Shown: in pieces, positions 1-19,118 of the stretch | How positions within the stretch are numbered: position 1 is the stretch's first letter | Layout: each line of letters starts with the position of its first letter | DNA from: Pyrinomonadaceae bacterium | Lineage (GTDB): Bacteria; Acidobacteriota; Blastocatellia; Pyrinomonadales; Pyrinomonadaceae | Length of the DNA: 64,000 nucleotides | Direction: 5' to 3' | Assembly (NCBI GenBank): GCA_036277115.1 | Contig: DASUNM010000015.1 | Location: 108,451 to 172,450 of the forward strand | Notes under the pieces: model-generated | The model's database searches: none | The model's input: only the letters and a program-made list of their open reading frames with translations | What the model was told of the DNA's origin: nothing | Made by a program: the position numbers and the translations under genes

Positions 1-34
1 TTGGGAACCTCCTGTGATGAAAAGAGACGAGTTA

Positions 35-1291
35 TCATTGTTCAAAATCGAGACGAATGGCTTTGGGTGGGTGAGGCTGATTTGCCGTTGCTCTGTCCCG
101 GCGGAATGCCTCAGCGTAATTGCGCACGTCGATCGCCTTAGCAGAGATCACGTCAACGCGTTTATCGATTGCAATGGTGACGCGAACACTGCGTTGCGCT
201 GGCGCGAACCGAGCAACCTCAGAACTGGCTGGTGTCACTTTATGTTCGGGCGTGGCGTCAATTATGACCGCGCTCGCTTCCGGCGACTGAGATTCCTCCA
301 GCGACCTCCAATTGATCGCAAAACGAACCGGGCGCTTCGAGTCTTTCGGGCGAATTCGGACAATAATCCTCGAATGCTGATTTGAAGGCCCTGGAGCTTC
401 GATAAAGGATCCTTCCGTAACATTCTCGACCCTGATTAACGCAACGCCACACGGCGCACAACCCAGATTGCCGCGAACCTCAGGAAAGGCCGGCGCCAAT
501 TTGCTTGCGGTGACGTTTATCGTGCCAATACTCGTCGAATCGTCCGGAGACGAACCGCTCAAATAGACGATCAGGTATTTGCCTTCGGTTTCCACTCGCA
601 CAGTCATGGGACGAACCGGGCGAGGCGGCGGTCGCGGCGGCGGTAAAGCATCCAGTCTGGGCTCGATCTCAAGACTGCCCCCAGGTTTTAAGGTAACGGT
701 ACGCGTCACAACTGCATAGCCAGCTCTTGAGACAGTGATTTCATACTCGCCTGGTGGAAAAGCGACATCTTCGATCGCGCTTGCATACGAACCCACGTGC
801 TGGTTCCGATCGATATTCCTAACTTCGATGGCGGTGCCGTCCACGGTAGGCTGAACGGTCAGCGTCGCCTTCAAGAGCTCAAGTGTCAGCGTCAACGAGG
901 AAGTGTCGCCGGCCTTTAGATCGACAGTTTGCTCGGCATCCCCGTAGCCTGGATGGCGCGCCGTGATCGTATAGGACATCGGCGGCAGTGTGAGAACAAT
1001 GGTTCCGCTGGTATCTAGTTTTTGCGATTCGCCATTCAGCCAAACTGAGCTGTCGGCCGGACTCACTGCAAGGTACAACCTCCCGGGTTTGACTCTGGCC
1101 GACGCGGGCTTAGGGCTGGACGGACGGCCGCTCCCCTTCTTCCGTGGGTTAGTTGAACGGTTAGTGCCTGCGGGCGGCGGTGGTCGGGTAGCGTTTTCGT
1201 CTTGAGCCTGAAGGTCACAAACCAAACCGCTAAAAATAGACACGAACATCAGGCAACAAAAAGGAATCCGCCAGTTGTGTTTGTAACTCAT
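35..1291 (-). CDS. Membrane-anchored/exported protein with Pro-rich linkers and two PEGA-like repeats; last gene of the 17-kb cluster
   Basis: ORF 35..1363. The internal ATG at 1291 lies 10 nt after the upstream stop (1302) and is preceded by GAGG. N-terminal hydrophobic helix IPFCCLMFVSIFSGLV. PEGA-type segments YTITARHPGYGDAEQTVDLKAG and FPPGEYEITVSRAGYAVVTRTVTLKPG. Confidence 0.7.
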   Translation of the reverse strand: MSYKHNWRIPFCCLMFVSIFSGLVCDLQAQDENATRPPPPAGTNRSTNPRKKGSGRPSSPKPASARVKPGRLYLAVSPADSSVWLNGESQKLDTSGTIVLTLPPMSYTITARHPGYGDAEQTVDLKAGDTSSLTLTLELLKATLTVQPTVDGTAIEVRNIDRNQHVGSYASAIEDVAFPPGEYEITVSRAGYAVVTRTVTLKPGGSLEIEPRLDALPPPRPPPRPVRPMTVRVETEGKYLIVYLSGSSPDDSTSIGTINVTASKLAPAFPEVRGNLGCAPCGVALIRVENVTEGSFIEAPGPSNQHSRIIVRIRPKDSKRPVRFAINWRSLEESQSPEASAVIIDATPEHKVTPASSEVARFAPAQRSVRVTIAIDKRVDVISAKAIDVRNYAEAFRRDRATANQPHPPKAIRLDFEQ

Positions 1292-1301
1292 GGTTGAAGC
1301 C

Positions 1302-2753
1302 TCACAAATCCTTGGCGCATCGAAACCCTGTATTCGCGTAACCAACCAAGGCGCCCCGCGCATCCCACCCTTTTCTAAAGGTTGCTGTGGCCTTTCCGGG
1401 AGTACTGCCCCAATAGCCTCCGCGAATTACTCTTAGTTCGGCTTGATTTTGATCGGGCGCTTGTCCTCCGGGATACGCCCTGAATTCGGTTGCCGTCCAC
1501 TCCCAGGCATTTCCGATCATGTCCATCACGCCAAAAGGGCTTTTCCCGTCCGGATAAGAACCCACATTCGCAAAGTGGCGGACGGTGGCATCGCCGGCGT
1601 TCGCGACGTTGTTTCGCCATTGATTTCCCCACGGATACAACCGGCCGTCGGTGCCACGCGCCGCGAATTCCCATTCTTCTTCGGTCGGCAAACGTTTACC
1701 GCTCCACTGTGCGTACGCATTGGCGTCGTACCAATCAACGCCGGTAACGGGATTCTGGTGGGAGCTATTTGGACAATTGCCTTTGACCCAACCTGGCGGC
1801 AGCCGATGATTTGTCGCCTTTACGAACTTTTCGTAATCACGGCACGCAACCTCGTGCTGATCAAGAAAAAAGGGTCGGACTGTGACCATGTGCGCCGGCC
1901 TTTCATGCTCATCGCCCAGATCATTTCCCATCCTGAATTCGCCGCCCGGAACGTAGACCATGCCCGATGGCGGCGTGGGGATGACTACTGCCGGCAAAGG
2001 GCCCGCTCGTTTGGGACCGAAGACAATCGCGAACGCAGTTACCGCGATAACCGTCACGCCGACTGCGACTGTCACCGGCAACCATGGAATATTTCTTTTC
2101 CGAGGGGCCGCCGGTAAGACTGCTTGCCACGGAGCGGCAATGTACACGGCACGATCGTCGCGCTGGGCATCGGTTGCACCAGTGTTTGGCGGCGACGTTT
2201 CGTTCTTCGAGTTTGTCCCCTCGAAGGCGGCATCTTTGGACAACCGGGCTGACAGATCCTGCGAAACCTGCTTGCTGACGCTGGTTGATTGGGCCCCAAC
2301 TGAAGCCTCACAAAAAGGACATGCACTCCTTGGAGTGAGAATTAAGACTCCAATTTCCGGACATTGATGTTCGGCAGGGGCGGCAGCGGGATGCGTTGCG
2401 CATCCTGGGCAACTGGGAGCAATTCCGTTTTCAACAGTGATTGAATAAAGCTTTCGCCGGACGGGCACGGCTGATTCGATGCTTATCACCTGACACGCGG
2501 GACATAAGTAGCGTTTGGCCGTCGGTCGCTCGCAGACAAAGCATTCGGAGCGGCGCAAGAAACCATTCGTCACTTTCGAAGGCCAAAACGTCGCGCAGTC
2601 ACAGCAGTACTGCCACCAGGCCTGATCCGGAAAGCCACTCCCGATCGCGTGCCCGCCCTGTTCGCATGCCACCAACGAATCTCCAGCGGCCCGGAACCGG
2701 AGCTGGTGCTGCGGACAATAAAAAGTAAAGCTCTGCGTTGCTTCGGGTGACAT
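1302..2753 (-). CDS. Single-pass membrane protein: N-terminal 14-Cys zinc-ribbon-like module, TM helix, C-terminal FGE-sulfatase (SUMF1-type) domain
   Basis: 483-aa ORF. Residues 12-148 carry YC..C..GH..YCCDC..CxxCER..CxxC..CPGC..HxC..CPFC. TM helix WLPVTVAVGVTVIAVTAFAIVF. FGE-sulfatase-like motifs include GGEFRMGND, RVIRGGYWGS and GFRCAKD. Confidence 0.8.
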   Translation of the reverse strand: MSPEATQSFTFYCPQHQLRFRAAGDSLVACEQGGHAIGSGFPDQAWWQYCCDCATFWPSKVTNGFLRRSECFVCERPTAKRYLCPACQVISIESAVPVRRKLYSITVENGIAPSCPGCATHPAAAPAEHQCPEIGVLILTPRSACPFCEASVGAQSTSVSKQVSQDLSARLSKDAAFEGTNSKNETSPPNTGATDAQRDDRAVYIAAPWQAVLPAAPRKRNIPWLPVTVAVGVTVIAVTAFAIVFGPKRAGPLPAVVIPTPPSGMVYVPGGEFRMGNDLGDEHERPAHMVTVRPFFLDQHEVACRDYEKFVKATNHRLPPGWVKGNCPNSSHQNPVTGVDWYDANAYAQWSGKRLPTEEEWEFAARGTDGRLYPWGNQWRNNVANAGDATVRHFANVGSYPDGKSPFGVMDMIGNAWEWTATEFRAYPGGQAPDQNQAELRVIRGGYWGSTPGKATATFRKGWDARGALVGYANTGFRCAKDL

Positions 2754-2828
2754 GTTTCAACTGCGCCGTCTTTGTCAAAAGGAGCCCGACGAACCTTGAA
2801 TATCCCGGCTCGCTCGTCGCAATGATGC

Positions 2829-4592
2829 TCATCCCTCTGGATTAAGCGGTGAAGGTGATGCCTTCTCGCTTGCGCTTGAGATCACGGTAACAAAAAGCCT
2901 CTGGGACGTGCTCCCACCACGTCCGTCGTTTATTGTGACGTTTATGATCTTCTGTCCGGGCTCAACACCCGTCGAATTGAATATTGCGGTATCTCCTTTA
3001 TGAATGATCTCGCCGGCCGACGCTTTCCAGTCAAAGTAGAGAGGTGAGTCCCCGTCAGGATCGGTGGCAAAAACCCAGAGCTTTACCTGCCCACCAGTCT
3101 CTACGGTGAGGCTGTCGGCTGTGAAAAATTCAAGTTTCGGAGAATGGTTTGGCTTTACCTCAGGTGGTGCGCGCGTGGCTGTCGCGGGAGAGAATTGCCG
3201 CGGCAGTACTACAATCGTCAAATCTCCGCTAACCGCGCCTCCATGATTGTCAGTTACACGTAATGTAATTTTCACGGGAACAGGCGAAATAATGTGGCCC
3301 ATTCCCGCAGTGTTTAGGATTGCGGTGGAACCAGAATCGGAGTTCGTCTTTGCGATTTCCAACGCGGGTGACGAACTTTGCCAATCGTATGAGAGCATCG
3401 CGTTCGTAGTGCTCGCCTCAGCTAGAGCATACAAGGACACTATTTCTCCGACTCGTATCTGTTGATTGTTGCAATTGCAGCGCGGGGGAACTGTTAGGCT
3501 CGGCGGATTGTTCAGGACGTTGCGAGACACAACCGAAATCCGTTCTTGTCGGGACGCCGTTAATCCGAGTTCATCAGTCACGACCAATTCGATTGTAAGA
3601 TCAGTCGAGATCGCTTTTGGGATGATGCCATCCGTGTTTAGCAAAGCGTTCGCGCCGTCTCCGTTAATCGTGCCGGCAGATGAAAGCCAACGGTAGCGAA
3701 GTTCACCGCCATCTGGATCATCAGCCTGCGCTCTTAACGCGACGACCTGTCCTTGCTGAACGAGATGTTCACACTCAATTGCTCGAATGCGGGGCGGACT
3801 ATTCAGCCATTCCGTTAAGGTTTGCGAAACCGCGGCTACCGGCCCGCCCAGACCTACCAGAATTCCAAAAACACCAACGGCAATGCTGATGGTGGTTACC
3901 CAATGTGAAAACGTTCTGGGCCGGTGCACTCTTAACCACTCAAGCGGCAATTTACAGCGGTCAACCCACGTGCTTGAATTTGCGAATCCAGCGAGGTAAG
4001 CCAGGCTCTGCGGCTTGTCCGGCGCGTCGTGCTCATCCGGGGAGTCAGCGGGATCTTTCGCCGCGCCAACCTGTGTTAGCCACTCGTTGCAGAATGGACA
4101 TTCCAATCGGGGAGTTACGTATGTAATTCCCAAAATCGTGCATTCATGTTTAGCCAGGTTACTTGTGAGAGTCGCGACCAGACAGCCCGGGCAAACAGGA
4201 GACGCCCTTCCGTCTTGCAGAATCGCGAAGGACTTGCTTACTGAATTCTCGGACGCAATTGTCAGAAGCTTACAGTCGTTGCACAGAAACCATCGCGTGA
4301 CTGGGCGTTCACATTGCGAACATTGCGTATATGCGTCGTCACCTTCAAGGATCTCCCGTGGGACAAACTTCTCGCAATCGCAGCAGTACACCCAGAACTC
4401 CGTATACGGAAAATCGGTTGCAACTTCATGCCCGTTTGCACAGACGATGGTAGAGGCGCGCAGGGACGACACCGCTGCGCGCTCGGTCCTGCAATATACC
4501 TGTATTAGATCTGGCTTCGCGGTCGCGGTTGTGGTTGGTCGCATGTGAATCACGGACGAGCCCCCGCTTGTGCTCTGGGCCCCCGAAAACAT
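2829..4592 (-). CDS. Single-pass membrane protein: same 14-Cys module, TM helix, three PKD/Ig-like repeats
   Basis: 587-aa ORF. Residues 33-168 align with the Cys modules of the two neighbouring genes. TM helix WVTTISIAVGVFGILVGLGG. Three repeats of about 90 aa contain DPDGGELRYRW, LSYDW and DPDGDSPLYFDW. Confidence 0.75.
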   Translation of the reverse strand: MFSGAQSTSGGSSVIHMRPTTTATAKPDLIQVYCRTERAAVSSLRASTIVCANGHEVATDFPYTEFWVYCCDCEKFVPREILEGDDAYTQCSQCERPVTRWFLCNDCKLLTIASENSVSKSFAILQDGRASPVCPGCLVATLTSNLAKHECTILGITYVTPRLECPFCNEWLTQVGAAKDPADSPDEHDAPDKPQSLAYLAGFANSSTWVDRCKLPLEWLRVHRPRTFSHWVTTISIAVGVFGILVGLGGPVAAVSQTLTEWLNSPPRIRAIECEHLVQQGQVVALRAQADDPDGGELRYRWLSSAGTINGDGANALLNTDGIIPKAISTDLTIELVVTDELGLTASRQERISVVSRNVLNNPPSLTVPPRCNCNNQQIRVGEIVSLYALAEASTTNAMLSYDWQSSSPALEIAKTNSDSGSTAILNTAGMGHIISPVPVKITLRVTDNHGGAVSGDLTIVVLPRQFSPATATRAPPEVKPNHSPKLEFFTADSLTVETGGQVKLWVFATDPDGDSPLYFDWKASAGEIIHKGDTAIFNSTGVEPGQKIINVTINDGRGGSTSQRLFVTVISSASEKASPSPLNPEG

Positions 4593-4638
4593 CTTGTCAG
4601 CTTCCTACACTCTATTAATCGGACCTTGTCTCGCGAAA

Positions 4639-6603
4639 CTATTCGTATTCGCTGCCGGCTGAAAGTTGTTGGGCTTCGTTCAGTTTCTCTTTGATCTTCT
4701 CGAGGTTCATGTTGGCAGTTCCGACGGCCTGTGGACTGAGCACCCATTGGTACTCTGTTATCGCGGTCTCAAAATCCTTCTCGATCATTGCAATGTCGCC
4801 CAACCACGCGTGAGGGCGCGCCCAGTCAGGCGCGAGCTGAACTGCTTTCTTGTAGAAAACCTTAGCCTCAGAGTAGTTTCTTTCCATGTAATATGAGGTG
4901 CCTAAATTGTTGTAAGGATTTGCCCAATTGGGATTGCGGCGAACTGCGTCAGAATAGAGTGTCCGCGCCGTTGAATAGTTCTTGAGCGATGCGTAGACCA
5001 GCCCCGCGCTGTTGGCAGGTAGAGCCCATGACGGATCCAGTTGGGCCGCTTTTACCCAGTGCTCAATCGCAGCTTGATTCTGGTTAGCCAAGTAGGCCAC
5101 TCGACCCTGGCAGTAGGCACTCTTTGCGCTAATAAGACTGTCACCAGGCTTCAATTCAGTAGCCCATGACATCGCTCTCGTGGCGATTTGCCATTCCGAG
5201 GCTGGCGCTTCTTCATAGCCAGGCTGAAGCAGGTTTTGGGTAAGCTGCGTGGCCTGCCTCGTCAGTAACGGCACCAGTCGCTCTCGGTACTTGCGCAACG
5301 TCTCGTCATTGGCGCCGTTGGCTTTCAGTTGGTTGTAGAGTTGATAGGCGTTCTGGCTTGCAGGCGGAAATAAATTGCCTCTCGCTATTGCGTCGTCAAG
5401 CTGCTTCTCGACGCTGTTACTTCCCACGGTGTTAAGGGAAACAGCAATAATCACAACCAGCAGGAACACCAATCCAATGCCTGCCATCAGAACCTTGACT
5501 GCGGTTGACAGAGGTGATGGGATTCGCGAAGTGGAAGGCGACGCCGACCAGGAAGTAGTGTCGATCGGCGAAGCCGTCACGTTCTCAACGTCACCAACAA
5601 ACGATCCAGCAGGTGTCGATCCGGGGACAGGTAGGTTCTCCGGTGCAGTCAATTCAACTGGTAGAGTGACGCTTTCATAGTCAGCCGCCCCAGAGGCTCC
5701 GAAGGCCAGGCCACAGCGTCCACAAAATTGCTCGGTGGGTTTTCCGGCGGTACCACAGTTGGGGCAGACGATAAGTTCTTGCGTAATGCGCTGCGGCCCG
5801 GCGAGCTTGATTTCGATTGCGCCTGCTTCTTTGACGACCCACCCGGCCTCAGTCCGATCGACTGACGCAGGTCGAATGACAATAATCTCGCCCGCTGATG
5901 GGTTGTCGCAGTTAAAGAGTTCGTAATAGGTGTCGTAATACTGCCGCTTCGATTTAAGTTTCCTGGCCTTAGGAATCGCGAAGGACAAGTTCAGGCCGGG
6001 CACACCCGGCAAAAGGACGTAGTCGCCGTCGGCCGACGCTGTTAGTTGGTTTCCAGCGCTATCCAATTTCAGTTTGGTTGTCGTCTTGAGACTGGTTAAG
6101 CACTCTGACACCGTGCACGGAAAATCCGGCAGGCGTTCAAGGACTTCATCGCAGAAAGGACAAGTGGAAAAGCTCGTCACGAAAGAGGCGCCGTAGTCGC
6201 GACAGTCGTGGTCGATGACGGAATGTGAAGGCTCTTGCAGACAGCCCGGACAGGTGGGAGTCGGTATGCCGTTCGTGATCGCAAAGACCTTGCGACGACC
6301 TGGTTCGTCTGATTCGACACTAATGACATTACAGTCCCCACAGACATAGCGGCGGACTACGTTGCGTTCACAAGCTGGACATTCTTTGCTGGCGGCTTCT
6401 TTTTTTGCCGTATCAACGAGCCAGCAATGCTGGCAGTCACAGCAATATTCCCACGACGAGCTGTCCGGAAAATTCTTGGCGAGAGCATGGCCACCTGACG
6501 CACAGAGAATTGGCTTACTCGACGGGGCGTCGAAACCCACTTTATGGGTGATGCAATAAGCGCGAATTACGCGAGCGGTAATCGCGTCGGCTGGGGCAGC
6601 CAT
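4639..6603 (-). CDS. Single-pass membrane protein: 14-Cys module, shared YY..YYE..PSAG domain, double zinc ribbon, TM helix, periplasmic TPR repeats
   Basis: ORF 4639..6690. The ATG at 6603 has a GAGGAG RBS and avoids overlap with the upstream gene. Cys module encoded at nt 6151-6558. CPNCG..FCGRCG at nt 5710-5766. TM helix VLMAGIGLVFLLVVIIAVSL. The C-terminal part has TPR-like repeats (AYCQGRVAYL, ALPANSAGLVY, NPYNNLGTSYY). Confidence 0.75.
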   Translation of the reverse strand: MAAPADAITARVIRAYCITHKVGFDAPSSKPILCASGGHALAKNFPDSSSWEYCCDCQHCWLVDTAKKEAASKECPACERNVVRRYVCGDCNVISVESDEPGRRKVFAITNGIPTPTCPGCLQEPSHSVIDHDCRDYGASFVTSFSTCPFCDEVLERLPDFPCTVSECLTSLKTTTKLKLDSAGNQLTASADGDYVLLPGVPGLNLSFAIPKARKLKSKRQYYDTYYELFNCDNPSAGEIIVIRPASVDRTEAGWVVKEAGAIEIKLAGPQRITQELIVCPNCGTAGKPTEQFCGRCGLAFGASGAADYESVTLPVELTAPENLPVPGSTPAGSFVGDVENVTASPIDTTSWSASPSTSRIPSPLSTAVKVLMAGIGLVFLLVVIIAVSLNTVGSNSVEKQLDDAIARGNLFPPASQNAYQLYNQLKANGANDETLRKYRERLVPLLTRQATQLTQNLLQPGYEEAPASEWQIATRAMSWATELKPGDSLISAKSAYCQGRVAYLANQNQAAIEHWVKAAQLDPSWALPANSAGLVYASLKNYSTARTLYSDAVRRNPNWANPYNNLGTSYYMERNYSEAKVFYKKAVQLAPDWARPHAWLGDIAMIEKDFETAITEYQWVLSPQAVGTANMNLEKIKEKLNEAQQLSAGSEYE

Positions 6604-6670
6604 AGCAATGTACTCCTCTTGGGAAACCTGTCGACTCGGGATTATCAGCGTCAGCGTGTTAGCTCGGGCT

Positions 6671-7837
6671 CTAACGCACTTCGAGAACACCTTTCTCTCT
6701 CAACTGCCAACCTCCGGGAACGGTTGAGACGATGGCCGGGTCGATTATCCAGACATCTCCCGCGGAGGGTCTCTGGCATTCGTAATATCTCTCGTAGTAC
6801 GAATGAAACTCTTGCTTCGTCTGGAACTGAGCCACGCGCGGCACGACAAACAAAGGCTGAGCGTCATCGGCAACGCTTGCATCACGAATCAGGACCAACT
6901 CGCCTTTGCCGTCGATGTCATTCACCAGAATTCCGTTTTGGAAATCGGGTTTTACGACCGTTGAATTTCGCCTTTTCTTGTCCAGGTACTCATTGACCGA
7001 GGCGGGAAACTCAGGTTCAATCGGCTGTGGCGTTAGTCGTGAGTAGTCGTCGAAAGCCTGCCGAACCGTACCGCCGCCATAACCACCGTCGGGGCTTTGC
7101 CTGATTCGCCGTCCCAGCGCCTGCAGTTCGCCTTCAATCGATTCCAATCGTCCAGATGTTTTTTGCTGCTCATTCAGTGCTGCGCTGAACTGTTTGTTCA
7201 ACTCGTCGTGGCGGCGCTTAACGCCGGTTACATGGGCTTTCACAAGTTCGTTCACGTGGTCATCAAATTTCGCCCAGTAGCCTTTGCGCAGTCTCAGAGC
7301 ACCGAAGACGGCAAGCGCTATGAGGCCTGCTGCTGCAATTCCTCCGGCGATTGGCCAGATTAGACTCAGCAAGCCACCCCCTTCATCGCCACGTCCGGGA
7401 GACACCTCAGATCCAGAGGATTGCGTCTGAGAATCCGCAGGGCTGACAGTTGTCTTTGGGACACTTGCGGCAAAAGTCTCAGCGTCGGCGATCGCCCTAT
7501 CCATCGCCTTCACTTTGTCGCCGCGCAAGAAAGTTTTACCCCTCGCGACCACCTGTTGTTTCTCAGCGTCAATTGCCTCGCGGAGTTCGGTAGCAGCGTT
7601 CTTCACTCTTTGTTTGTCACTCGAGTTCTTCGCGGACGACAAAAATCTATTCGCAGCCGTTTCCAGTGACCTGCCTAACTGGGGCTCTTTGGTTTTGAGG
7701 GCTTTTTCCAGATCGCTTAAAGATTGCGCCAAAGCGGATTTGCTTTCTGCTTCTGTGGGCTGTGCGCGAACCGTGAAGGACCAGCCCACGCAAAAACAAA
7801 TCACTAGAAGGTAATTCAAATATGACGGAGCTCTCAT
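6671..7837 (-). CDS. Signal peptide, coiled-coil ectodomain, TM helix, cytoplasmic coiled coil, C-terminal YY..YYE..PSAG domain
   Basis: ORF 6671..7891. The ATG at 7837 has a GGAGG RBS. Signal-like YLNYLLVICFCVGWSFTVRAQ. TM helix LLSLIWPIAGGIAAAGLIALAVFGAL. The C-terminal 115 aa resemble the middle domain of the 4639..6603 protein. Confidence 0.7.
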   Translation of the reverse strand: MRAPSYLNYLLVICFCVGWSFTVRAQPTEAESKSALAQSLSDLEKALKTKEPQLGRSLETAANRFLSSAKNSSDKQRVKNAATELREAIDAEKQQVVARGKTFLRGDKVKAMDRAIADAETFAASVPKTTVSPADSQTQSSGSEVSPGRGDEGGGLLSLIWPIAGGIAAAGLIALAVFGALRLRKGYWAKFDDHVNELVKAHVTGVKRRHDELNKQFSAALNEQQKTSGRLESIEGELQALGRRIRQSPDGGYGGGTVRQAFDDYSRLTPQPIEPEFPASVNEYLDKKRRNSTVVKPDFQNGILVNDIDGKGELVLIRDASVADDAQPLFVVPRVAQFQTKQEFHSYYERYYECQRPSAGDVWIIDPAIVSTVPGGWQLREKGVLEVR

Positions 7838-7856
7838 CTTTGCCTCCTCAGCAGTG

Positions 7857-10800
7857 TCAGCTCTCTTTACTTTGCACGCGATAATTTCCATTCACTTGCG
7901 CGAGCGTGTCCAGAAAGTCCTTGTTGCTGCGGCGGGAATAAAAGACTTCGGACAAAAAGTGATTGATTGGCGAGACCTCAAGCCGCTCGATGCGCCCACT
8001 GAGTGTGGATACGAAATCATCGACTCGCCCGTTGATATTGGTCCACGCTTCTCCTGGCATGTTGTCCTCTTCACCAGCACGAACATTGCCAATGGAGGTG
8101 AAAACCGAAAGCACGGGACTCAAGGGAACTTCGAGATCTGCGGGAGCATCAAATCTGCCATTCTCGACTTGTTCGACGCCCGGGAACTTTTGTTCGAACG
8201 TCTCAGTCCCCCATCGCTCACACCAGCGGATGGTGGCCGGAGGCGAGCCGCTTAATTCCAGGCCTTCCAGGGTGAATCCCGCGTAGGGCGTTGCGGATGC
8301 ACCATCTCTCGATGCGCGCGTGCGCGCGGCATTCAGAGCGCCTAAGGCCACGTTAGTCTTGGCCTTACTCAGGTTCTCCTCGTTCAGCAGGATTAGGTTG
8401 TAGATCTTGAGCGCCTCTAGATATTCCCGCTCTTCTTCCGTGACCACCGCTGCCAATTTTTCTTTCAGTAAGTTGAGAATTCTTTTGGCTTCCTTCTCGA
8501 GGTGTCCGCCAAGGCGCTTGAACTCACCGAACAGCATCAATCCCCAACCGTTGCCGCCCAAAATCAGGTTGATGCCACTTGAGGGCTTCAGCTTCTGCTC
8601 GACGGCTGCCGCGCATGCTTGCAGCAAGGCGTAGGCGAGAATGTGTTGAAAAAAGAGGCGGGTGCGGTATCTCTGGTAGGACTGCGTGCCCATTCCTTTC
8701 CGCAAAATTGCGGATTCACGCTCTTGAAACTGCTGATCATTGAGACTGCTGATCCAGACCGAATACGTGATGTCGAGGTCAAAGCTGGGATCCGGATTCA
8801 GCAGTTTTAGTTCCGCGTCATCATTCGCACCCTGGAGTAATCGGCGCAGATGTTTCTTGAACTCACTCGCCCCAAGCAGATCGTTACCGAAATTCTTCTT
8901 CGCAAATTGAAAGAAGGTCTTGCCGGCAACGCGGATGCTGTCCAGGACCAGAAATCGCCGGTCGTGACTGACAGCGATGTCCGCCGTGCCCCCACCAACA
9001 TCGACGAAGACTTCCATCGTCGCTTTGTTGCCAACCGATCCGATCGATTCAGCAATCGCAGTGCTCTCGTCTACTCCTTCTTCATAATTCACGTCCTTAC
9101 CCAAGCCAGTTCCATAACAGATGTTACGTACCCGTTTCAGGGCCTGCCTTACCTTGTTGTGATAGCTGTCGCGATCGTCCTTTCGGAAGGCGAGCGGAAA
9201 CGTAAATACGTATCGATCGATAAGCATCCGCTTGCTAAAGAACATCTCGGCGTGCGCATACAGCAACGTGAGTTGCAGAAAGAGTGTTCGCCACGGCTCG
9301 GTCTTGCCATCGAGATCCCACTTTAGGTTGGCATGCGGCTTCCAGGTTTTGTTGAGGTCCCCTTGATACAGTCGTTGCTCGAGATCTCTATGCAACCCTG
9401 GGATGTCTACTTTGAAAATCTCGGCGACTGAAACGTCCTCCGATTTCAGCGCGTCGGTGAGGTTGGGATCACTCCTGCGCGATAAGAGAATAGTCGGGAA
9501 GAAACCTTTTGTGGTAGTCGCATTCCACTTATAAGGAAAGAAGCCCGGTAGTTCCAACGCCTCGCTCAGATCGCCACGCTTCCCCCACACGGGCCTGGGC
9601 GCAATGGTGAATCTCAAGATCTCCGGCTGACTGTCGCTGAACGCGTAGGCCAGGCAAGTGTTGCTGGTCCCGAAGTCAACGGACAGTTTCGTATCAAGCT
9701 CGCGATTAGCGGTTTGGTCTCCGCCGAAGTCCGCAAGGAAAAGTATGCCGCGCTCTCGCTCGCCATTGTCGGTCAACGCGAGAGCACGCGGTTGGTTCGG
9801 GACCTCCGAACCGGAGAGGACGCTTACGTACTCTTCCTCTTCGACATCGACCAATTTGCCGAGCCGGCCGTTCTGATCCACCAGGTGCCAACGGCCGGAG
9901 TCTTCCTTAGTGCCAAACCCGTACGCCGCGTACAAACGCCATTCACTCGACACCTTGGGCGGCCAGATCGCGAGCGACGAAGCGGCAAGACCCTTGGCGT
10001 ACGATGGTCGTGTCTGCCACTTCACTTCCCTGCCCGGCATGACCGGAATCGTCCATTCCACCGATGCGCCTTCAAGGCTTGGGAGCGCGGATACTTTTTC
10101 CAGGTTAGTCAGAATCTCGGGAAAGTGCCGAATAAATTCGCTTCTTATCGGCGCAAGACACACCGCCGCATCCTTCTCGGTGACCACCGGATCGCGTAAT
10201 TCCATTTTGTGAACCGATCGGATGTGCGCGGCCTGGGTATCTGAAGTCTTCGGAATCTTGCACCAGTGCGGAGTGTCGCTGAGGAACAGATCCTTCAACA
10301 AAACGATTTCATCGTTTTCAGATATTCGGCAACTAAATCGGCGGCCGGGTAACTCGACTACGATTTCCTTATCGTTCAGTTTCCGATACTGGTAGGGCGC
10401 GGGTCCGCTGGGAACGGTAGCCGCTTTCATCCACGGTTGCAGTTCGGGCAAACCATCCAGCAGATAAAAGATGCGGCCAACATTTTTCTCGTCATCCTGC
10501 TCAGTCGAGCGCTTGGCTTTACGCAACGGATAAAGCTGGAGCAACTCGTCGCTTTCCCAGTGTTTGAGCCCAGGAACCTCCCAGCTCGACGGATCCGTTT
10601 CAAGACTCCCGGTTAGATCAATTCGCCCTTTGAAGTTAGCTTCACAGAAATCGTACAGACGATCCTGAAGCGTCCGGCTTGAGACTGCGTATTCCGCAAT
10701 TAACCTGAGGTGGGCATGGAAGTCCTGGTTTTCCTTGTCACTGGTGAGAAGAATGCGCCGGCTTCGGGTCCAAGACAGTCGATCGTCCAGTAGGTAATCG

Positions 10801-11309
10801 GCAAGCGTCTTGTCCTTTTGCCAGGCAGTCCGATCTCGCGCCGGGAAAAAGATTACCGCGGGATAGTATGCGCCAACCACGGTTTCGTTGTGTTGGAGAA
10901 GCTTGAGAGACCTTGGCGCCTGTTCGCGAACACTGGGATAGGTGCCACTAAGAGCTTGCCAAAGATCGCGATCATAGTTTTGCTGAAGGTAGCTCTGTTT
11001 GAACTCCGCCAGGTGCGCAACTCCAAAGTAATGAAGGAGAAAAAGCGTGATCCACTCTTCGACCGCTGTTGAAACCTCGTCCGCAAAAGCTCCCGCTTCC
11101 GCGCCTGTTTTGACCGGCAGGTCGAGCACTTTCCGAAACGCGTATCCCGCCGCCCAAGCGGTTGGAAAAGTCTCGAAATATTGCGGGTCATAGTCGGGAC
11201 TTGTTAGATATTCAGTTCGCACAGCACGAAAGGACCGCTTTTCGGCAATCCCAGCGCCACCACCCAAGATTCCGGAATTCAGAAATTCCCTTCGATTACC
11301 GTTATTCAT
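7857..11309 (-). CDS. Giant actin/Hsp70-fold ATPase-like protein with an N-terminal region of about 540 aa of unknown function
   Basis: ORF 7857..11321 starts at TTG; the ATG at 11309 has GGAG 7 nt upstream. Phosphate-1 VDFGTSNT is encoded at nt 9657-9680. DESTAIAES precedes phosphate-2 VDVGGGTAD at nt 8979-9005. ILGGNGWG is the adenosine-type motif. Confidence 0.8.
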   Translation of the reverse strand: MNNGNRREFLNSGILGGGAGIAEKRSFRAVRTEYLTSPDYDPQYFETFPTAWAAGYAFRKVLDLPVKTGAEAGAFADEVSTAVEEWITLFLLHYFGVAHLAEFKQSYLQQNYDRDLWQALSGTYPSVREQAPRSLKLLQHNETVVGAYYPAVIFFPARDRTAWQKDKTLADYLLDDRLSWTRSRRILLTSDKENQDFHAHLRLIAEYAVSSRTLQDRLYDFCEANFKGRIDLTGSLETDPSSWEVPGLKHWESDELLQLYPLRKAKRSTEQDDEKNVGRIFYLLDGLPELQPWMKAATVPSGPAPYQYRKLNDKEIVVELPGRRFSCRISENDEIVLLKDLFLSDTPHWCKIPKTSDTQAAHIRSVHKMELRDPVVTEKDAAVCLAPIRSEFIRHFPEILTNLEKVSALPSLEGASVEWTIPVMPGREVKWQTRPSYAKGLAASSLAIWPPKVSSEWRLYAAYGFGTKEDSGRWHLVDQNGRLGKLVDVEEEEYVSVLSGSEVPNQPRALALTDNGERERGILFLADFGGDQTANRELDTKLSVDFGTSNTCLAYAFSDSQPEILRFTIAPRPVWGKRGDLSEALELPGFFPYKWNATTTKGFFPTILLSRRSDPNLTDALKSEDVSVAEIFKVDIPGLHRDLEQRLYQGDLNKTWKPHANLKWDLDGKTEPWRTLFLQLTLLYAHAEMFFSKRMLIDRYVFTFPLAFRKDDRDSYHNKVRQALKRVRNICYGTGLGKDVNYEEGVDESTAIAESIGSVGNKATMEVFVDVGGGTADIAVSHDRRFLVLDSIRVAGKTFFQFAKKNFGNDLLGASEFKKHLRRLLQGANDDAELKLLNPDPSFDLDITYSVWISSLNDQQFQERESAILRKGMGTQSYQRYRTRLFFQHILAYALLQACAAAVEQKLKPSSGINLILGGNGWGLMLFGEFKRLGGHLEKEAKRILNLLKEKLAAVVTEEEREYLEALKIYNLILLNEENLSKAKTNVALGALNAARTRASRDGASATPYAGFTLEGLELSGSPPATIRWCERWGTETFEQKFPGVEQVENGRFDAPADLEVPLSPVLSVFTSIGNVRAGEEDNMPGEAWTNINGRVDDFVSTLSGRIERLEVSPINHFLSEVFYSRRSNKDFLDTLAQVNGNYRVQSKES

Positions 11310-11347
11310 CGTGATCTCCAATATCCGTTCGACCGGTTAACCTAAAT

Positions 11348-13051
11348 CTACGCGGCGCCGACCGCTCGCATCCGTTTCTGAGTTCGGGAAAATAACCTTG
11401 ACCATACCAGCCTTAGATATTCTCCACGAGTAAACTCGGCGGTCTCCGGGCACCAGTCGCCGAATTCGAAAGTAGATACACGGATCGACGATCGGCCAAG
11501 CTCAAGTTCCCCTTTTGCTTCTCTGCTCGTTAATTTCTTGGCCGTCTTTGCTGTGATCTCCTTCAGACTGTGCGGATCGCTTGAGAGGAACGGCCGAAGT
11601 TTGGCCACATCTTCGCCGCTCCACCCCACGGTGTGATCCGGATTGGGATCGAGCGTCGTATCAAGGAACTTGGCGAGCAGATTGGCAGCGCCATTGAATC
11701 GCTTCCAATCTTCGAGCTTGCGATTTTCGTTATCGGCGTACACTTCGCGCAGGCGTTTAATCTCTTTGGGCCAGGTGCGCGCCGGCAGGTCCCACGGAAT
11801 TTGCTGGGTAACAAGATGGTGCATGACCGCAGCAGACAAGAACACCGCTTCCGGCTCGATCTCAGTCTCACCGGCCGTGTAACGAGGAAGATGACGCAGA
11901 CTCATTTTTTCCGAGTCGAGATCCGGCGTTGATGCGCCGATCACATACGACTCCGGATTCCCGGTACCCGCGCGGGAGAAAAAGTTTAGCGCCGCCAGCG
12001 CGCCAACTATTTCCGCCGAGTTGAGTGGATTTCTTTGACTCTTACCGCCATTGCTCCAAACCTTTAATTTGTCAGGCTCAGGCTTGCCGGCAAGATAAAG
12101 TTCGTCAAAGTATTCCGCGCTGTGATCGCGGTAATATGCGAGGGCTTGCCGAGCGCGCGCCTCCATCGCTTCGGGTTCGGCGTAAAAACCGAGAAGGATC
12201 TGCTCGACGAGCTTTCGCTTATCCTCGATTGGCAGTCCATTGAATGCCGGTTTGTCGCCATGTTCTTTCGCAAGATCGTCAATCTGCTGGGTCGTCGGGT
12301 AATCGTCCTTAAGCGCGCCAAACGGAGGCTGCGGCGGCACACAGTACGGTGTCAGCAGGCAGGCGCCAACGCGCCAATCCCACGTCTGATTTTCTTTCTT
12401 GAGCGTGCCGAGATATTTGCCCATGACAGGAACTCCGCACGCGCCTGTCCCGCCATGAAGACTTCCGCAAAGGAAGAAGTTCGTGCTGACGTTTTGAAAT
12501 GCCGTCAGACTGCACGCTTTGCCACCGGGTGAATTCTCGTCGCGCAGCGATTCAGCGAAAACCGCCATAACCGCGGCGCCAATAAATGGCTTCTGATAGA
12601 AGCCGCGGTCAATTTCGACGTCAAGGTCTTTCTTTTCATAAAACGGAGAGAGAAATGGGAGCGAACTCTTGGTGGCGCCATATCTTGAATCGAGAATGCC
12701 GCCCAGGTTCTTCACAATGTTGTCAGAGTTAGAAGCCTGGGGTAGCTGCAACGGATCCAAGTGGCGAACTCGCATATCAATGTCCATCGCCCATCTACTA
12801 CTGGCCATACCGCCGGTTTGCTGCCCATTCAGCAACTCTTGCAGCTCCTGATAATCCTTTAGGCAATTTCCGAGAGCGACAGCCGCACCGGAATTCAAAT
12901 CCGGATCCAATCTCCAAATCTGCAAGGAATGACCGGCGCTCGTGAGTACGTCCTTCTCACTGTGCGTCGGGAAACCGATTGCCAGCAGACGAACCAGCGC
13001 TTCGGCCACCTTGGTGCCACTGCCGCCAACTGCAATAAAAACGTTGCGCAT
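11348..13051 (-). CDS. Divergent tubulin/FtsZ-superfamily GTPase (Tubulin_2-like)
   Basis: 567-aa ORF. N-terminal strand plus T1-like loop VFIAVGGSGTK (nt 13010-13027). T4 tubulin-signature-like HGGTGACG (nt 12434-12457), comparable to FtsZ GGGTGTGAAP. Confidence 0.8.
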   Translation of the reverse strand: MRNVFIAVGGSGTKVAEALVRLLAIGFPTHSEKDVLTSAGHSLQIWRLDPDLNSGAAVALGNCLKDYQELQELLNGQQTGGMASSRWAMDIDMRVRHLDPLQLPQASNSDNIVKNLGGILDSRYGATKSSLPFLSPFYEKKDLDVEIDRGFYQKPFIGAAVMAVFAESLRDENSPGGKACSLTAFQNVSTNFFLCGSLHGGTGACGVPVMGKYLGTLKKENQTWDWRVGACLLTPYCVPPQPPFGALKDDYPTTQQIDDLAKEHGDKPAFNGLPIEDKRKLVEQILLGFYAEPEAMEARARQALAYYRDHSAEYFDELYLAGKPEPDKLKVWSNGGKSQRNPLNSAEIVGALAALNFFSRAGTGNPESYVIGASTPDLDSEKMSLRHLPRYTAGETEIEPEAVFLSAAVMHHLVTQQIPWDLPARTWPKEIKRLREVYADNENRKLEDWKRFNGAANLLAKFLDTTLDPNPDHTVGWSGEDVAKLRPFLSSDPHSLKEITAKTAKKLTSREAKGELELGRSSIRVSTFEFGDWCPETAEFTRGEYLRLVWSRLFSRTQKRMRAVGAA

Positions 13052-13067: not shown

Positions 13068-13385
13068 CTAAATAATTTCGCGCCGCCAAGGGCTCACCAG
13101 ATGACCGGTAAACATGCACAGAATGTAGATAATCCACGCCATTACAATTCCTTTCATCAACCCCCCGACGCCCACGAAGTTGAAGAAGTTCCTGGTCATA
13201 TACCAAACAACCAGCAGTACGATCACGACCGGAATTAGCCCGACCACGATTAGCAGCATCGTCTGTCCTCGGCTCCACGCCTTCTGAACGATGTTGATGG
13301 CCATGTACTTCCTGAGCCATTTGAAGCCCAACATCACGAGCGCGCAGATCGCCGCGATCACCAGAGCTGCTATGACCCAGTTCAT
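13068..13385 (-). CDS. Small 3-TM membrane protein
   Basis: ORF 13068..13559. The ATG at 13385 avoids overlap with the vWA gene. Three hydrophobic helices are present. Its stop lies 17 nt before the tubulin-like start. Confidence 0.6.
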   Translation of the reverse strand: MNWVIAALVIAAICALVMLGFKWLRKYMAINIVQKAWSRGQTMLLIVVGLIPVVIVLLVVWYMTRNFFNFVGVGGLMKGIVMAWIIYILCMFTGHLVSPWRREII

Positions 13386-13489
13386 CGCAGTTTCTTCGCA
13401 TCCTTCCTCGTCACAAGCGTCCAGGAATAATTCGAGAAAGCCTGAGCCTTGAATTAGAATTGCCAACACGCGCGTATCTCCCTTCTCAC

Positions 13490-14995
13490 TTAATCCGACG
13501 GCCCAATCCGCAAGTAGGCCTTCGCGACCACTTGATCCTTTGCTGTCGAGTTGTTCCACAGCCCAAGAAGCGCTGTCTCAAGATTGAATGTCCGGTTAGC
13601 AGTTTCCGGCGTTGTATCGAGATCGGTAGACCAACTCTTGATCCATTCCGGCGTACCTTGGTTGAGATTGACGCGACCCTCTACGCTGTAGAACCGCCAG
13701 GAAGGTTCTCCTGTTCCCGGTGGATACGACGCGGTCGCCTCCAAAACGAGATTGCCACCTTCAAGATGCGCGCCGGTTATGTTGAGCTCGGGAAATCTCG
13801 CGCCCGATTTACTGTCACTTGGGGGGTGGATTGGCTTGAGTTCCCATTTGATCAACCGGACAAGTTCCTGTTCATTGCCCGCATCGAGAGCATGAGAAGA
13901 CCAGGGCACTTTTACTTGAATCGTAAACGGCTTCGGTCCGGACCGCTCGGTATCAACATCCACTTGCATCGTGAATCTCTGCGGCGGGCCGCCCTGGTTT
14001 TTCGCCTTGTGGAGCGCCCCTCGTGATTCTTTGGGAACGGAAATTTCGAACTGGGCCGCAGCGTCCGTGTATGGGAAAGATAAATTCAACTCTCGGATGC
14101 AATCTAAGCAGTTGTCTATCAATGGACGTAGACGCTCTTTGAGGGATCGCACCAGCGAATCAAGCGCAACCTGATCGGGCGAGAAGATGTAAAGGAAGAA
14201 GGGGCGGAAGGAGGATGGATTGTTGTTCCTGGTCTCGTACGGGATGGCGGCGCCGCTCACTTCTGAATACACCTTGCCGCGAAAATCTGCGCGAACGCCC
14301 AGCACGCATCCACCCCAACCCGCCTTCAGTAACTCCGCAATCTTTTGCCTGACGCAAAATTGATCGGAGCCGGCGTTACAGTTTTGGTTCGTATCTCCTT
14401 TTTTGGTGGATTGCACGCCGTCAGTAACCAGGATTTGGAACCGAGCTGGCGGCGGCGGCTCCGCGGAATCGGTGCCGTTGCTTCGAGTTGGAGTTGCCGC
14501 CTGCTTTGAACCAGTGCCGTTGGGCTGGTAGCCGACTTTGAATGCGCTGATGGCGCCCGACAGGTTTGTTTCACCGGCACGATAAACGGAAGGGTCTTGC
14601 GAGGCAGTAGTCAGATCCATATCGGGAAGCGGCGGCCCAATTGCGGAGCCTACTCGGCGGACGGAGACGCGCACGTCAGGACCCGCGAAAGTTCCAGTGG
14701 CAAAACGAAGCTCTCGCAATGTCTTGCCGAAAATTGTCTGGCCGTCGCGTGACACGTAGCCGGCCATGCTCCCGCTTTCATCCAGATAGACAATGAGTTC
14801 GTTAGTAGTCGCGATCGATGGCGACGGCGGAAGAGATGTCGCCGGCTTGTTCTTCACCTCAGGCGGCCATTCCGGCGCTGGAGTGCCACATCCTGTAAAC
14901 AAAACCAAACCGCTTAGAACCAGCACGTGCCACGAGACGCTCAAGAGTCGGGTTCGCGCATTGATAGCTTGGGTGTGTTTGTAGTGTCTAGTCAT
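13490..14995 (-). CDS. vWA-domain lipoprotein
   Basis: 501-aa ORF. Lipobox LFTGC. MIDAS motif DESGS at nt 14768-14782 (ELIVYLDESGSMAG), followed later by ILVTDGVQS. Confidence 0.8.
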   Translation of the reverse strand: MTRHYKHTQAINARTRLLSVSWHVLVLSGLVLFTGCGTPAPEWPPEVKNKPATSLPPSPSIATTNELIVYLDESGSMAGYVSRDGQTIFGKTLRELRFATGTFAGPDVRVSVRRVGSAIGPPLPDMDLTTASQDPSVYRAGETNLSGAISAFKVGYQPNGTGSKQAATPTRSNGTDSAEPPPPARFQILVTDGVQSTKKGDTNQNCNAGSDQFCVRQKIAELLKAGWGGCVLGVRADFRGKVYSEVSGAAIPYETRNNNPSSFRPFFLYIFSPDQVALDSLVRSLKERLRPLIDNCLDCIRELNLSFPYTDAAAQFEISVPKESRGALHKAKNQGGPPQRFTMQVDVDTERSGPKPFTIQVKVPWSSHALDAGNEQELVRLIKWELKPIHPPSDSKSGARFPELNITGAHLEGGNLVLEATASYPPGTGEPSWRFYSVEGRVNLNQGTPEWIKSWSTDLDTTPETANRTFNLETALLGLWNNSTAKDQVVAKAYLRIGPSD

Positions 14996-15592: not shown

Positions 15593-16663
15593 CTACGGAC
15601 TAGCGGGCGGAACGAGCACGGCTCGGGGCACCGTCATTTTTATCGACAACACTTCTTTCACTCGAGTAACACTCACGTTCTGCAGCGCTCGCAGCGCCTG
15701 CTCGTCGCGGTTGTTCGTTGCGGCCAGGGTTGAAAAGCGTTTCATCAAATTCAATGAACCGGTCACAACGGCTGCTGCCTGTTCGTCGCGCATCAAAACG
15801 CACATTTCCGCTGGGTACTCCTGATTTGTGCCGCGGCTCAGGTTCAGGCCAAAGCCTCGTGCGACGTTGATTTGCTTCAAAAGACTTCCGACGCCGCCCA
15901 GATCAAACAGCGACAGAGCGAGCGAGGTCGCTGTCAAAGCCGCATCCGCCATGTCCAGGCTGCCTTGCGGAATTACTAGAAAAGCTCGGACGGAGCTGTT
16001 CCGCGCTGTCATGCCTGCCGCAATTTGTTTGTAGGGAGATGAGGAAATAAATCTTTGTTGCGAGTCACCAAGCGCTCGGAAAACTGCGGCGGCGGCTTCA
16101 CGACTTCCGGCAAAGACGGTGCCCGTTTGCGGCAGGGCGACATAGTCCTTGCCGTTCGTATAGACAGGATGCCCGTCGACGCGCTGCTCTTGCCAGCCTC
16201 TCCCCTTTAGACTTGCTATCTCTTGTTTTCGATTGAACGAACCATGCACTAACAGCCCGGCCGTCGCCTGGGTGTTAATGCCACTAAAGACAACGGCGGT
16301 CTTGACTTCTTCGCTACTCAAAACGAGCTGCTGAAGGATCCCTTCAAACTGATCTCCTTTGAAAAGCTGTTTCAAGTCGTTGTCGTTTCGCACCGTCGCC
16401 CAATCGATAATCACAACAGCACAGCTATCAATCGGCACTAGATCAAGGACGCTCGATTGGCGGCGACTGCATGCGCACATCGACAACAGCAGCAGAGTGC
16501 TACACAACAAACCACATAGCTGCAACGCCGGTTTTCGCGCCTGCTTGAACACATGAGCAGCGATGCTTTCCTTGCACGACGGACCGCTTAGAGAATCCAA
16601 TCTCATGTGGTTGAATGCCTGCCTGAACCGCAATCCGCTCTTGCTTCGTCGGCTATAGTTCAT
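15593..16663 (-). CDS. Hypothetical lipoprotein / membrane-anchored protein
   Basis: 356-aa ORF. Hydrophobic LCGLLCSTLLLLSMCAC has a lipobox-like end. ATGA overlap with the upstream AraC-type gene. No motif recognised. Confidence 0.6.
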   Translation of the reverse strand: MNYSRRSKSGLRFRQAFNHMRLDSLSGPSCKESIAAHVFKQARKPALQLCGLLCSTLLLLSMCACSRRQSSVLDLVPIDSCAVVIIDWATVRNDNDLKQLFKGDQFEGILQQLVLSSEEVKTAVVFSGINTQATAGLLVHGSFNRKQEIASLKGRGWQEQRVDGHPVYTNGKDYVALPQTGTVFAGSREAAAAVFRALGDSQQRFISSSPYKQIAAGMTARNSSVRAFLVIPQGSLDMADAALTATSLALSLFDLGGVGSLLKQINVARGFGLNLSRGTNQEYPAEMCVLMRDEQAAAVVTGSLNLMKRFSTLAATNNRDEQALRALQNVSVTRVKEVLSIKMTVPRAVLVPPASP

Positions 16664-19067: not shown

Positions 19068-19118
19068 CGCTCTTTCAGCGGTCCGGTCTGTTGACAATGA
19101 ATTTCGACGCAATACGTT

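Follow-up and report, generated by a model that had tools for sequence, protein, structure and literature searches.

Why would a bacterium encode, one after another, three membrane proteins that begin with the same cysteine- and histidine-rich domain and end in unrelated extracytoplasmic ones? The question is raised by a 64,000-nt stretch of a Pyrinomonadaceae genome (Acidobacteriota, Blastocatellia; assembly GCA_036277115.1, contig DASUNM010000015.1, positions 108,451 to 172,450 of the forward strand), hereafter the window. Here three tandem genes, A, B and C, share an N-terminal module of about 144 amino acids (aa) and lie downstream of genes for a divergent tubulin/FtsZ-like protein and a giant protein with actin/Hsp70 (ASKHA) signatures. 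A preliminary description of this DNA, made from the sequence alone, had proposed that the module links different periplasmic heads to a common cytoplasmic partner, possibly the adjacent NTPases. Having analyzed the module, its family and its genomic contexts, we give an even chance to the explanation that it is a metal-structured cytoplasmic docking domain, which tethers interchangeable periplasmic heads to a tubulin-like/ASKHA machine.

The shared module

Proteins A, B and C align nearly gap-free over their N-terminal ~144 aa, with 36 invariant columns that include 14 cysteines and two histidines. Pairwise identities by BLASTP are 33% for A and B (E 3e-28), 42% for A and C (E 3e-39) and 32% for B and C (E 3e-29), and a six-frame scan of the window with a hidden Markov model (HMM) of the module detects the three copies, at E 1e-55 to 1e-60, and no other. 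This confirms, position by position, the alignment by which a Cys/His module of about 140 aa had first been recognized in the three products, and the open reading frames (ORFs), coordinates and nucleotide ranges given then are exact. The cysteine pattern proposed with it is right for all 14 Cys and both His, but three of its spacings were off by one or two residues and are corrected here to C13-x16-C30 (not x15), C87-x26/27-CPGC (not x25) and C131-x13-CPFC (not x12). Gene C likely starts at ATG 6603 rather than at GTG 6690, since its homologues align from there. A public Logan contig encodes protein B letter for letter, and the cluster to which B belongs is represented by a hypothetical protein from Pyrinomonadaceae.

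After the module each protein has, as described earlier, one transmembrane (TM) helix and then a different extracytoplasmic domain (ectodomain), which Pfam identifies as FGE-sulfatase in A, PKD/Big_9 in B and TPR in C. Absent from the earlier account are two further elements of protein C, a small zinc ribbon and a domain of ~110 aa, both located ahead of the TM helix.

The module defines a sizeable family. A word-indexed protein search returned 12 relatives, mostly truncated, so that an exhaustive search was needed; a profile search of 1.84 billion cluster representatives (50% identity clusters, cut-off E<=1e-3) gives 265 clusters, of which 238 are found at E<=1e-10. Among 143 full-length representatives each of the 16 ligands (14 Cys, 2 His) is at least 96% conserved. 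A 17th conserved ligand is the histidine of a 'CPxH' motif (H16 of A), which is 92% conserved in the same representatives and is a glutamate in B.

AlphaFold2, given a 40-sequence alignment, models the module as an all-beta chain of successive hairpins (pLDDT 94.8, pTM 0.90), which DSSP places at residues 2-5/10-13, 19-21/28-31, 39-42/47-50, 69-75/81-86 and 119-123/128-132. The ligands are located at or beside the hairpin turns of the model, in CPxH, Cx4H, CCxC, CxxC, CPGC, HxC and CPFC motifs. All-beta hairpins with Cys/His at their turns bear out the original suggestion that about four knuckle sites of zinc-ribbon type follow one another in the module. From spacing and predicted secondary structure, the most economical grouping of the ligands would be four sites (numbering of A): C13, H16, C30 and H35 in site 1 (Cys2His2); C50 or C51 with C53, C71 and C74 in site 2, which would leave one Cys of CCxC spare; C84, C87, C115 and C118 in site 3; and H129, C131, C145 and C148 in site 4 (Cys3His). 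Zinc is the most likely metal in these four putative Zn(Cys/His)4 sites.

The module had not been recognized as a named domain, and Pfam (even at E<=10), NCBIfam, PADLOC, a profile search of the PDB and Foldseek likewise yield none. In Pfam the three modules have no curated zinc-ribbon match at E<=10 other than noise (zf-UBP 0.21, Zn_ribbon_6 8.8), the profile search of all PDB sequences with the module gives noise only, and Foldseek of the module model against PDB and BFVD finds nothing at E<0.1, its insignificant top matches being assorted small zinc domains. An origin as four repeats of one ribbon was considered and dropped, given that hhalign between the four sub-units of the module detects no more than knuckle-level similarity, with a probability of at most 57%. 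The module family and the arrangement of its fold are undescribed so far.

Family architecture and topology

In nearly all members the module begins within about 20 residues of the N-terminus, and exactly one hydrophobic helix follows it in 109 of the 123 proteins of at least 300 aa. Lysines plus arginines are more numerous before this helix than after it in 66 proteins, with the reverse in 20. The extreme N-terminal position, the lack of a signal peptide and this positive-inside bias together indicate that the module is cytoplasmic (N-in topology), in agreement with the preliminary description. An independent check on topology comes from the ~110-aa domain of C, which has no Pfam match and recurs in D, the protein encoded directly upstream (phmmer E 1.3e-12); this domain, here called DC, is on the cytoplasmic side in both proteins.

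The heads are far more diverse than the three in the window: the family has at least eight ectodomain types, mostly binding modules, which extends the observation that the module is fused to unrelated ectodomains. Counted over the 109 representatives in which a TM helix is present and the ectodomain is 50 aa or longer, the classes are TPR (25), FGE-like (20), SH3_3-type (16), PKD/Ig (15), a type of ~130 aa and unknown nature (11), another unknown type of ~165 aa (8), NTF2-like (3) and WD40 (2). The remaining types are singletons, and one beta-helix case is without a predicted TM helix. The linker between module and TM helix also varies: 28 of 128 members carry a genuine double zinc ribbon (DZR) there, and the DC domain is found there in 19 of 25 TPR-type members, in all eight members with the unknown ~165-aa head and in 3 of 20 FGE-type members. 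Module similarity is 0.37-0.43 within five ectodomain classes and 0.55 within one, and only slightly lower between classes (0.35-0.38), which is consistent with a common constraint on the module. A natural domain replacement is seen in locus L007 (3621-5075), whose FGE-type orthologue lacks the module and has a pair of plain CxxC...CxxC ribbons at that position.

For protein A, a full-length match to PF03781 (E 1.1e-54) supports the FGE-sulfatase fold of the ectodomain. Compared by eye with the human FGE motif, the segment RGGYWGSTPGKATATFRKG of A presumably lacks both FGE catalytic cysteines. The best NCBIfam matches of the ectodomain are EgtB, SenA, GldK and PvdO, all far under their cut-offs, and the domain is probably a binding domain or another kind of enzyme.

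Genomic context

Loci that encode the module were collected with a degenerate DNA pattern for FP-x4-W-x-[YF]CC[DN]C in GTDB species representatives and metagenomes. After removal of chance matches by an HMM check (approximately one-third of the genome matches and one-half of the metagenome matches), 17 true loci remain in GTDB species representatives and 21 in metagenomes. The named members of the family come from Acidobacteriota (Blastocatellia/Pyrinomonadaceae), and the 17 GTDB loci are all from Acidobacteriota/Blastocatellia/Pyrinomonadaceae metagenome-assembled genomes (MAGs), bar four labelled Heliomicrobium/Heliobacteriaceae. These four (L006, L013, L024 and L025) are MAGs titled 'uncultured Heliomicrobium sp.' or 'Heliobacteriaceae', with 53-57% GC, and the labels are doubtful because the gene order is the same as in Blastocatellia MAGs.

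The loci fall into two patterns. Pattern 1 comprises the high-scoring modules and includes the window, in which the genes are on one strand with short gaps, in the order lipoprotein F, lipoprotein E, small TM protein, tubulin-like protein, ASKHA protein, D, C, B, A and PEGA protein (Table 1). Protein D has a signal-like N-terminus, a helical periplasmic part, a central TM helix and the cytoplasmic DC domain, and in 17 loci its gene immediately precedes the first module gene. The order E/TM/tubulin-like/ASKHA/D/module is retained in L028, L032, L033, L058 and L078, with 43-62% identity of the ASKHA and tubulin-like proteins, so module homologues elsewhere do co-occur with both NTPase-like genes. 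The full tubulin-like/ASKHA/D/module order is found in every locus with enough upstream flank and in part in L001 and L015, and the ASKHA orthologues of these seven loci are 43-70% identical. Lipoprotein E is the first conserved gene of the operon. PEGA-protein orthologues in L001, L002, L007, L058 and L078 are conserved downstream of the last module gene; in the window the PEGA ORF and the end of gene A share 62 nt, and ATG 1291, with a signal-peptide-like segment, is the likelier start.

Table 1 Operon genes in the window and the domains of proteins A to D (nt, nucleotide positions in the window; res, residues)
Feature	Position (nt)	Residues	Strand	Description and evidence
Lipoprotein F	15593..16663		(-)	356 aa, predicted; no Pfam match; ~600-nt gap to E
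Lipoprotein E	13490..14995		(-)	501 aa, predicted; DESGS (MIDAS-like) motif; orthologues in L028, L032, L033, L078
Small multi-TM protein	13068..13559		(-)	~135 aa in orthologues; conserved between E and tubulin-like gene
Tubulin/FtsZ-like protein	11348..13051		(-)	567 aa, divergent, FtsZl1/Tubulin_2 type
ASKHA protein	7857..11321		(-)	1,154 aa; actin/Hsp70 signatures in C-terminal half
Gene D	6671..7891		(-)	406 aa, bitopic; no Pfam match
DC domain of D	6674-7051	281-406	(-)	Cytoplasmic, C-terminal
Gene C	4639..6690		(-)	683-aa ORF
Module of C	6151..6558	45-180 of ORF	(-)	Alignment, BLASTP, module HMM E 1.8e-59
DC domain of C	5806-6129	~188-295	(-)	phmmer against protein D
Small zinc ribbon of C	5710-5772	307-327	(-)	Pfam DZR, outside module
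TM helix of C	5437-5493	400-418	(-)	Hydrophobic-helix prediction
TPR ectodomain of C	4711-5133	~520-660	(-)	Pfam TPR
Gene B	2829..4592		(-)	587 aa: module, TM helix, three PKD/Ig-like repeats
Module of B	4089..4496	33-168	(-)	Alignment, BLASTP, module HMM E 9e-55
TM helix of B	3828-3884	237-255	(-)	Hydrophobic-helix prediction
PKD/Ig-like repeats of B	2886-3803	~264-569	(-)	Pfam Big_9, K319L-like_PKD, PKD_4
Gene A	1302..2753		(-)	483 aa: module, TM helix, FGE-sulfatase-like ectodomain
Module of A	2310..2720	12-148	(-)	Alignment, module HMM E 8.5e-60, BLASTP against other copies
TM helix of A	2019-2075	227-245	(-)	Hydrophobic-helix prediction
FGE-sulfatase-like ectodomain of A	1311-1967	263-481	(-)	Pfam FGE-sulfatase, full-length match
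PEGA/CarboxypepD_reg secreted protein	35..1363		(-)	Pfam

The number of module genes per operon varies from one to four, and so do their ectodomains. Four follow D in L058 and in L028, where one of them joins the module directly to DC without a TM helix; two follow it in L033, a locus on a 4.8-Mb contig, and one, of the WD40 type, in L032. In L078, D is followed by TPR, PKD, FGE and PEGA genes in the same order as in the window. Such variation in the number and type of heads would also suit a receptor array, in which the ectodomains sense ligands and the module signals their occupancy to the NTPases, switching a polymerization or ATPase cycle. It draws on the same architecture and synteny as the docking explanation, and the zinc ribbon of GltJ does act as a conformational switch (PMC11135422). 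However, neither Pfam nor NCBIfam finds a signaling domain or a signaling linker such as HAMP or a kinase, and the heads are of generic kinds that serve in binding or as scaffolds. Simple tethering fits the data equally, and we consider the array unlikely.

Several paralogues encoded together could also mean that the module mediates homo- or hetero-oligomerization of the membrane proteins, although operons with a single module protein exist (L032). Alternatively, the module could be a membrane-tethered zinc-finger array that binds nucleic acids, of which zinc ribbons are in general capable (also in PMC11135422). There is no match to a DNA-binding family, however, and the module is near-neutral to slightly acidic, with a median pI of 6.6 and a median net charge of -1; these values suit a protein-binding domain better than one for nucleic acids. 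Together these two are the least probable of the explanations that we weigh.

The neighboring proteins are themselves divergent, and support for the labels 'tubulin-like' and 'Hsp70-like' is no more than moderate. The tubulin-like protein has T1 (GGSGTK) and T4 (GGTGACG) motifs, and is under the gathering score of Tubulin_2 (PF13809; 14.3 bits where 27 are required, E 0.024). Foldseek of its AlphaFold model (pLDDT 84, pTM 0.89) returns beta-tubulin, FtsZ and CetZ as top matches with a probability of up to 1.0, at weak scores (E ~1e-3, TM 0.2-0.3) and mixed with SDR Rossmann-fold dehydrogenases; a PDB profile search with the protein is negative. It has 292 homologue clusters, and the few that carry a source name are from Blastocatellia/Pyrinomonadaceae/Acidobacteriota. 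The ASKHA protein contains the phosphate-1 and phosphate-2 motifs DFGTSNT and DVGGGTADIA, matches Pfam MreB_Mbl below the cut-off (E 0.002-0.0045) and, as a family profile against the PDB, MreB at E 2.3e-4 over about 60 residues. The assignment of lipoprotein E to vWA comes from the DESGS motif alone, and Pfam, NCBIfam and PDB profile searches give no vWA match for it. Among the operon genes, Pfam and NCBIfam detect no P-loop GTPase, kinase, GAP1 or FNIII protein.

Several further observations concern individual loci. Lipoprotein F may be part of the system: in two unrelated metagenome loci, L044 and L079, genes for its homologues immediately precede module genes. In L002 (3236-8606) the gene A orthologue is split by an insertion with an IS1595-family transposase and a DNA methylase. 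In L001 (4580-8615), the closest syntenic contig, the B and C orthologues are broken into several ORFs, probably by assembly frameshift errors. In L033 (1-6000) the operon comes shortly after MmeI-type methyltransferase and McrBC genes, a setting that resembles a defence island, and a GYF_2+TM2 protein is encoded directly upstream of E. In the window, a zf-HC2 anti-sigma-like gene (18204-19112) and an ECF sigma factor (19119-19739) lie before clustered genes for CHAT (caspase-like) and TPR proteins (19749-23441, 23876-24922, 26899-27624 and 27769-29364).

A second context beside dehydrogenase genes

Some 20 loci, in which the module scores 95-106 bits, make up pattern 2 (L004, L006, L009, L011, L013, L014, L020 and L023-L025, plus ten within L037-L077). 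The protein combines the module with a long charged coiled coil and a C-terminal TM anchor, without an ectodomain. Its gene immediately follows that of the FAD-binding subunit in a Fer2/MoCoBD/FAD (xanthine-/CO-dehydrogenase-type) gene set, at gaps under 70 nt, in 8 of 10 genome loci and 7 of 10 metagenome loci, the other metagenome loci being short. The protein may anchor the dehydrogenase to the membrane or exchange electrons with it.

Downstream of some pattern 2 genes is a gene for a protein, f3 (L024, 6520-7767, and homologues), whose motifs GIEVGSKG / IDVGSGNSKGG resemble those of ASKHA proteins of the Ppx/GppA type. As an ASKHA protein that would unify both contexts f3 was rejected, given that hhalign against the big ASKHA protein and a PDB profile search are negative and the Pfam match, to Ppx-GppA, is a faint one at E 0.18; f3 is also missing from the more divergent pattern 2 loci.

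Pattern 2 keeps alive a redox or metal-relay explanation, in which the sites would bind iron, as rubredoxin-like Fe(Cys)4 or Cys/His-ligated Fe-S, and the module would be a membrane-anchored electron carrier. Besides the position of this second subfamily directly after the FAD subunit, the points in its favor are the CxxC/CPxC knuckles that rubredoxins also have, the Cys2His2 and Cys3His ligands of sites 1 and 4, and the FGE-like heads, which belong to a family that includes oxidases. Yet the majority of ectodomains (TPR, PKD, SH3, WD40) have no redox role, no redox enzyme is encoded in the main operon, and it is not obvious how electrons would travel by way of a single TM helix. Zinc ribbons with histidine ligands are common, and it is zinc-ribbon hairpins that the module model resembles and small zinc domains that make up its insignificant Foldseek matches. 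All in all, we regard an electron carrier as improbable.

Comparison with known systems

RodZ-MreB, ZipA/FtsA-FtsZ and PilN-PilM are bitopic adaptor systems in which a small cytoplasmic domain binds an actin- or tubulin-like protein and the periplasmic part contacts the envelope. RodZ, ZipA and PilN are functional precedents for the module proteins, with no relationship to them in sequence or fold, and differ in that here several adaptors share one docking domain and carry many different heads. The zf-HC2 anti-sigma factors likewise consist of a zinc domain at the cytoplasmic N-terminus, a single TM helix and an extracytoplasmic part that varies. This identity was rejected for A, B and C, which have no zf-HC2 match and no cognate sigma factor in their operon; the ECF sigma/anti-sigma pair of the window (18204..19739) is a separate unit.

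The closest parallels to the module itself are the N-terminal zinc ribbons of the bitopic proteins GltJ (Myxococcus) and ZitP (Caulobacter), which are protein-binding switches (PMC11135422). As in these proteins, Cys/His knuckles at hairpin turns form an N-terminal cytoplasmic domain, and a linker leads from it to a single TM helix and a periplasmic domain. Docking to other proteins, the role proposed for the module, is also that of these classical and double zinc ribbons (Zn_Ribbon_1, DZR); like RodZ, ZipA and PilN, GltJ and ZitP link filaments or GTPases of the cytoplasm with periplasmic functions. Unlike zinc ribbons, the module is a fixed four-site unit of ~144 aa, with 17 conserved ligands that include CCxC and the Cys2His2 and Cys3His sites, and it shows no Pfam zinc-ribbon match, no detected internal repeats and no structural neighbor for the module as a whole.

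At the level of the operon, the FtsZl1 family, of which Tubulin_2 is the Pfam model, is typically encoded beside vWA and membrane-protein genes, and a membrane role has been proposed for it (Makarova & Koonin 2010, PMC2875224). The window operon is similar in having a divergent Tubulin_2-type gene beside a gene with a MIDAS-like motif and several membrane proteins, a likeness that involves tubulin-like and vWA-like genes below family thresholds. It differs from vWA/FtsZl1 operons in the lack of a GTPase, kinase or OmpA component, and its 1,150-aa ASKHA protein, protein D and zinc-module proteins are not described in that work (PMC2875224).

A strikingly similar theme is found in the GAP1-N2 DO-GTPase systems, where zinc ribbon(s) with a TM helix and SH3, PEGA, NTF2 or beta-sandwich domains occur together with genes for tubulin, vWA and HSP70 proteins (Kaur et al. 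2020, PMC7159879). These systems are known from Actinobacteria, Firmicutes, Planctomycetes, Verrucomicrobia and Chloroflexi, have zinc ribbons fused to a TRAFAC GTPase, and contain GAP1 and FNIII proteins as obligatory members (PMC7159879). The TRAFAC GTPase, GAP1 and FNIII are not found in the window operon, and its assignment as a DO-GTPase system was rejected, as no operon gene has a GTPase, GAP1 or FNIII match. The composition of the operon is undescribed; zinc-ribbon cytoplasmic adaptors of bitopic proteins near FtsZ-like/vWA-type genes are already known.

The thematic parallel to the DO-GTPase systems (PMC7159879) raises the further alternative of a conflict (defence) system, with an NTPase core, diversifying surface sensors or effectors and the module as an effector-associated adaptor. 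Head composition does differ between related genomes, McrBC and MmeI-type genes stand beside the L033 operon, and the window has its CHAT-TPR genes at 19.7-29.4 kb. For the core genes and the module, however, PADLOC (PADLOC-DB v2) is empty, the sole weak match being RmrT (E 2.4e-4) to the PKD region of B; DO-GTPase, GAP1 and FNIII components and toxin-type effector domains were looked for and not found; and the tubulin-like gene, which is highly conserved, seems to have been passed on vertically within a single class. A defence role seems to us no more probable than the electron carrier.

Discussion

The docking explanation can be stated as follows. The ~144-aa module would be a protein-protein docking domain, with its four putative Zn(Cys/His)4 sites built from zinc-ribbon-type knuckles, at the N-terminus of single-pass N-in proteins that bear swappable heads (TPR, PKD/Ig, presumably non-catalytic FGE-like, SH3, WD40 and NTF2-like). 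A, B, C and D would then be transmembrane adaptors of an envelope-spanning apparatus of about ten genes. Their cytoplasmic faces, the module and DC, would dock on a common partner, the tubulin/FtsZ-like protein and/or the giant actin/Hsp70-fold protein, and the ectodomains, together with lipoproteins E and F and the PEGA protein, would engage components of the envelope. The partner, like the direction in which information or force would be transferred, is something we infer.

The link to the system of the adjacent NTPases, as first proposed, holds in part. It is supported by recurrent synteny, with D next to the first module gene in 17 loci, but not by the pattern 2 loci, in which the NTPase genes are not among the neighbors. 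Several findings weigh against the explanation as stated above. No tubulin-like or ASKHA gene is present within 8 kb in the approximately 20 pattern 2 loci, and the module gene of L031 stands alone, in neither context, so the partner is not the same across the whole family. The tubulin-like, ASKHA and vWA assignments are all under curated thresholds, and the ligand sets proposed for sites 1 and 4 are also known from Fe-S proteins. In addition, the real interface may be protein D or the DC domain instead of the NTPases.

Pattern 2 suggests that the module is a more general membrane-tether plug, which serves other cytoplasmic partners too. More tentatively, and with somewhat less than an even chance, Blastocatellia may possess an unrecognized envelope-spanning cytoskeletal apparatus, in which the tubulin-like and ASKHA proteins would be coupled to the swappable periplasmic heads by way of the four-metal module and the DC domain, and the docking domain of which would have been reused to anchor a molybdo-flavoenzyme; the module would then be a general, lineage-specific plug with a new zinc fold.

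Acidobacteriota are abundant in soils, and their cell biology is little studied. The proteins of the module family are now annotated as 'hypothetical' or carry the misleading name 'SUMF1/EgtB/PvdO family nonheme iron enzyme', and a family of 265 clusters that is unannotated and absent from Pfam, NCBIfam and the PDB would be a useful entry for domain databases. Since FtsZl1-type proteins were described in 2010, no experiment has defined partners or a function for them. Adaptors that combine one putative docking domain with identifiable heads make the question of what FtsZl1-type proteins do a testable one.

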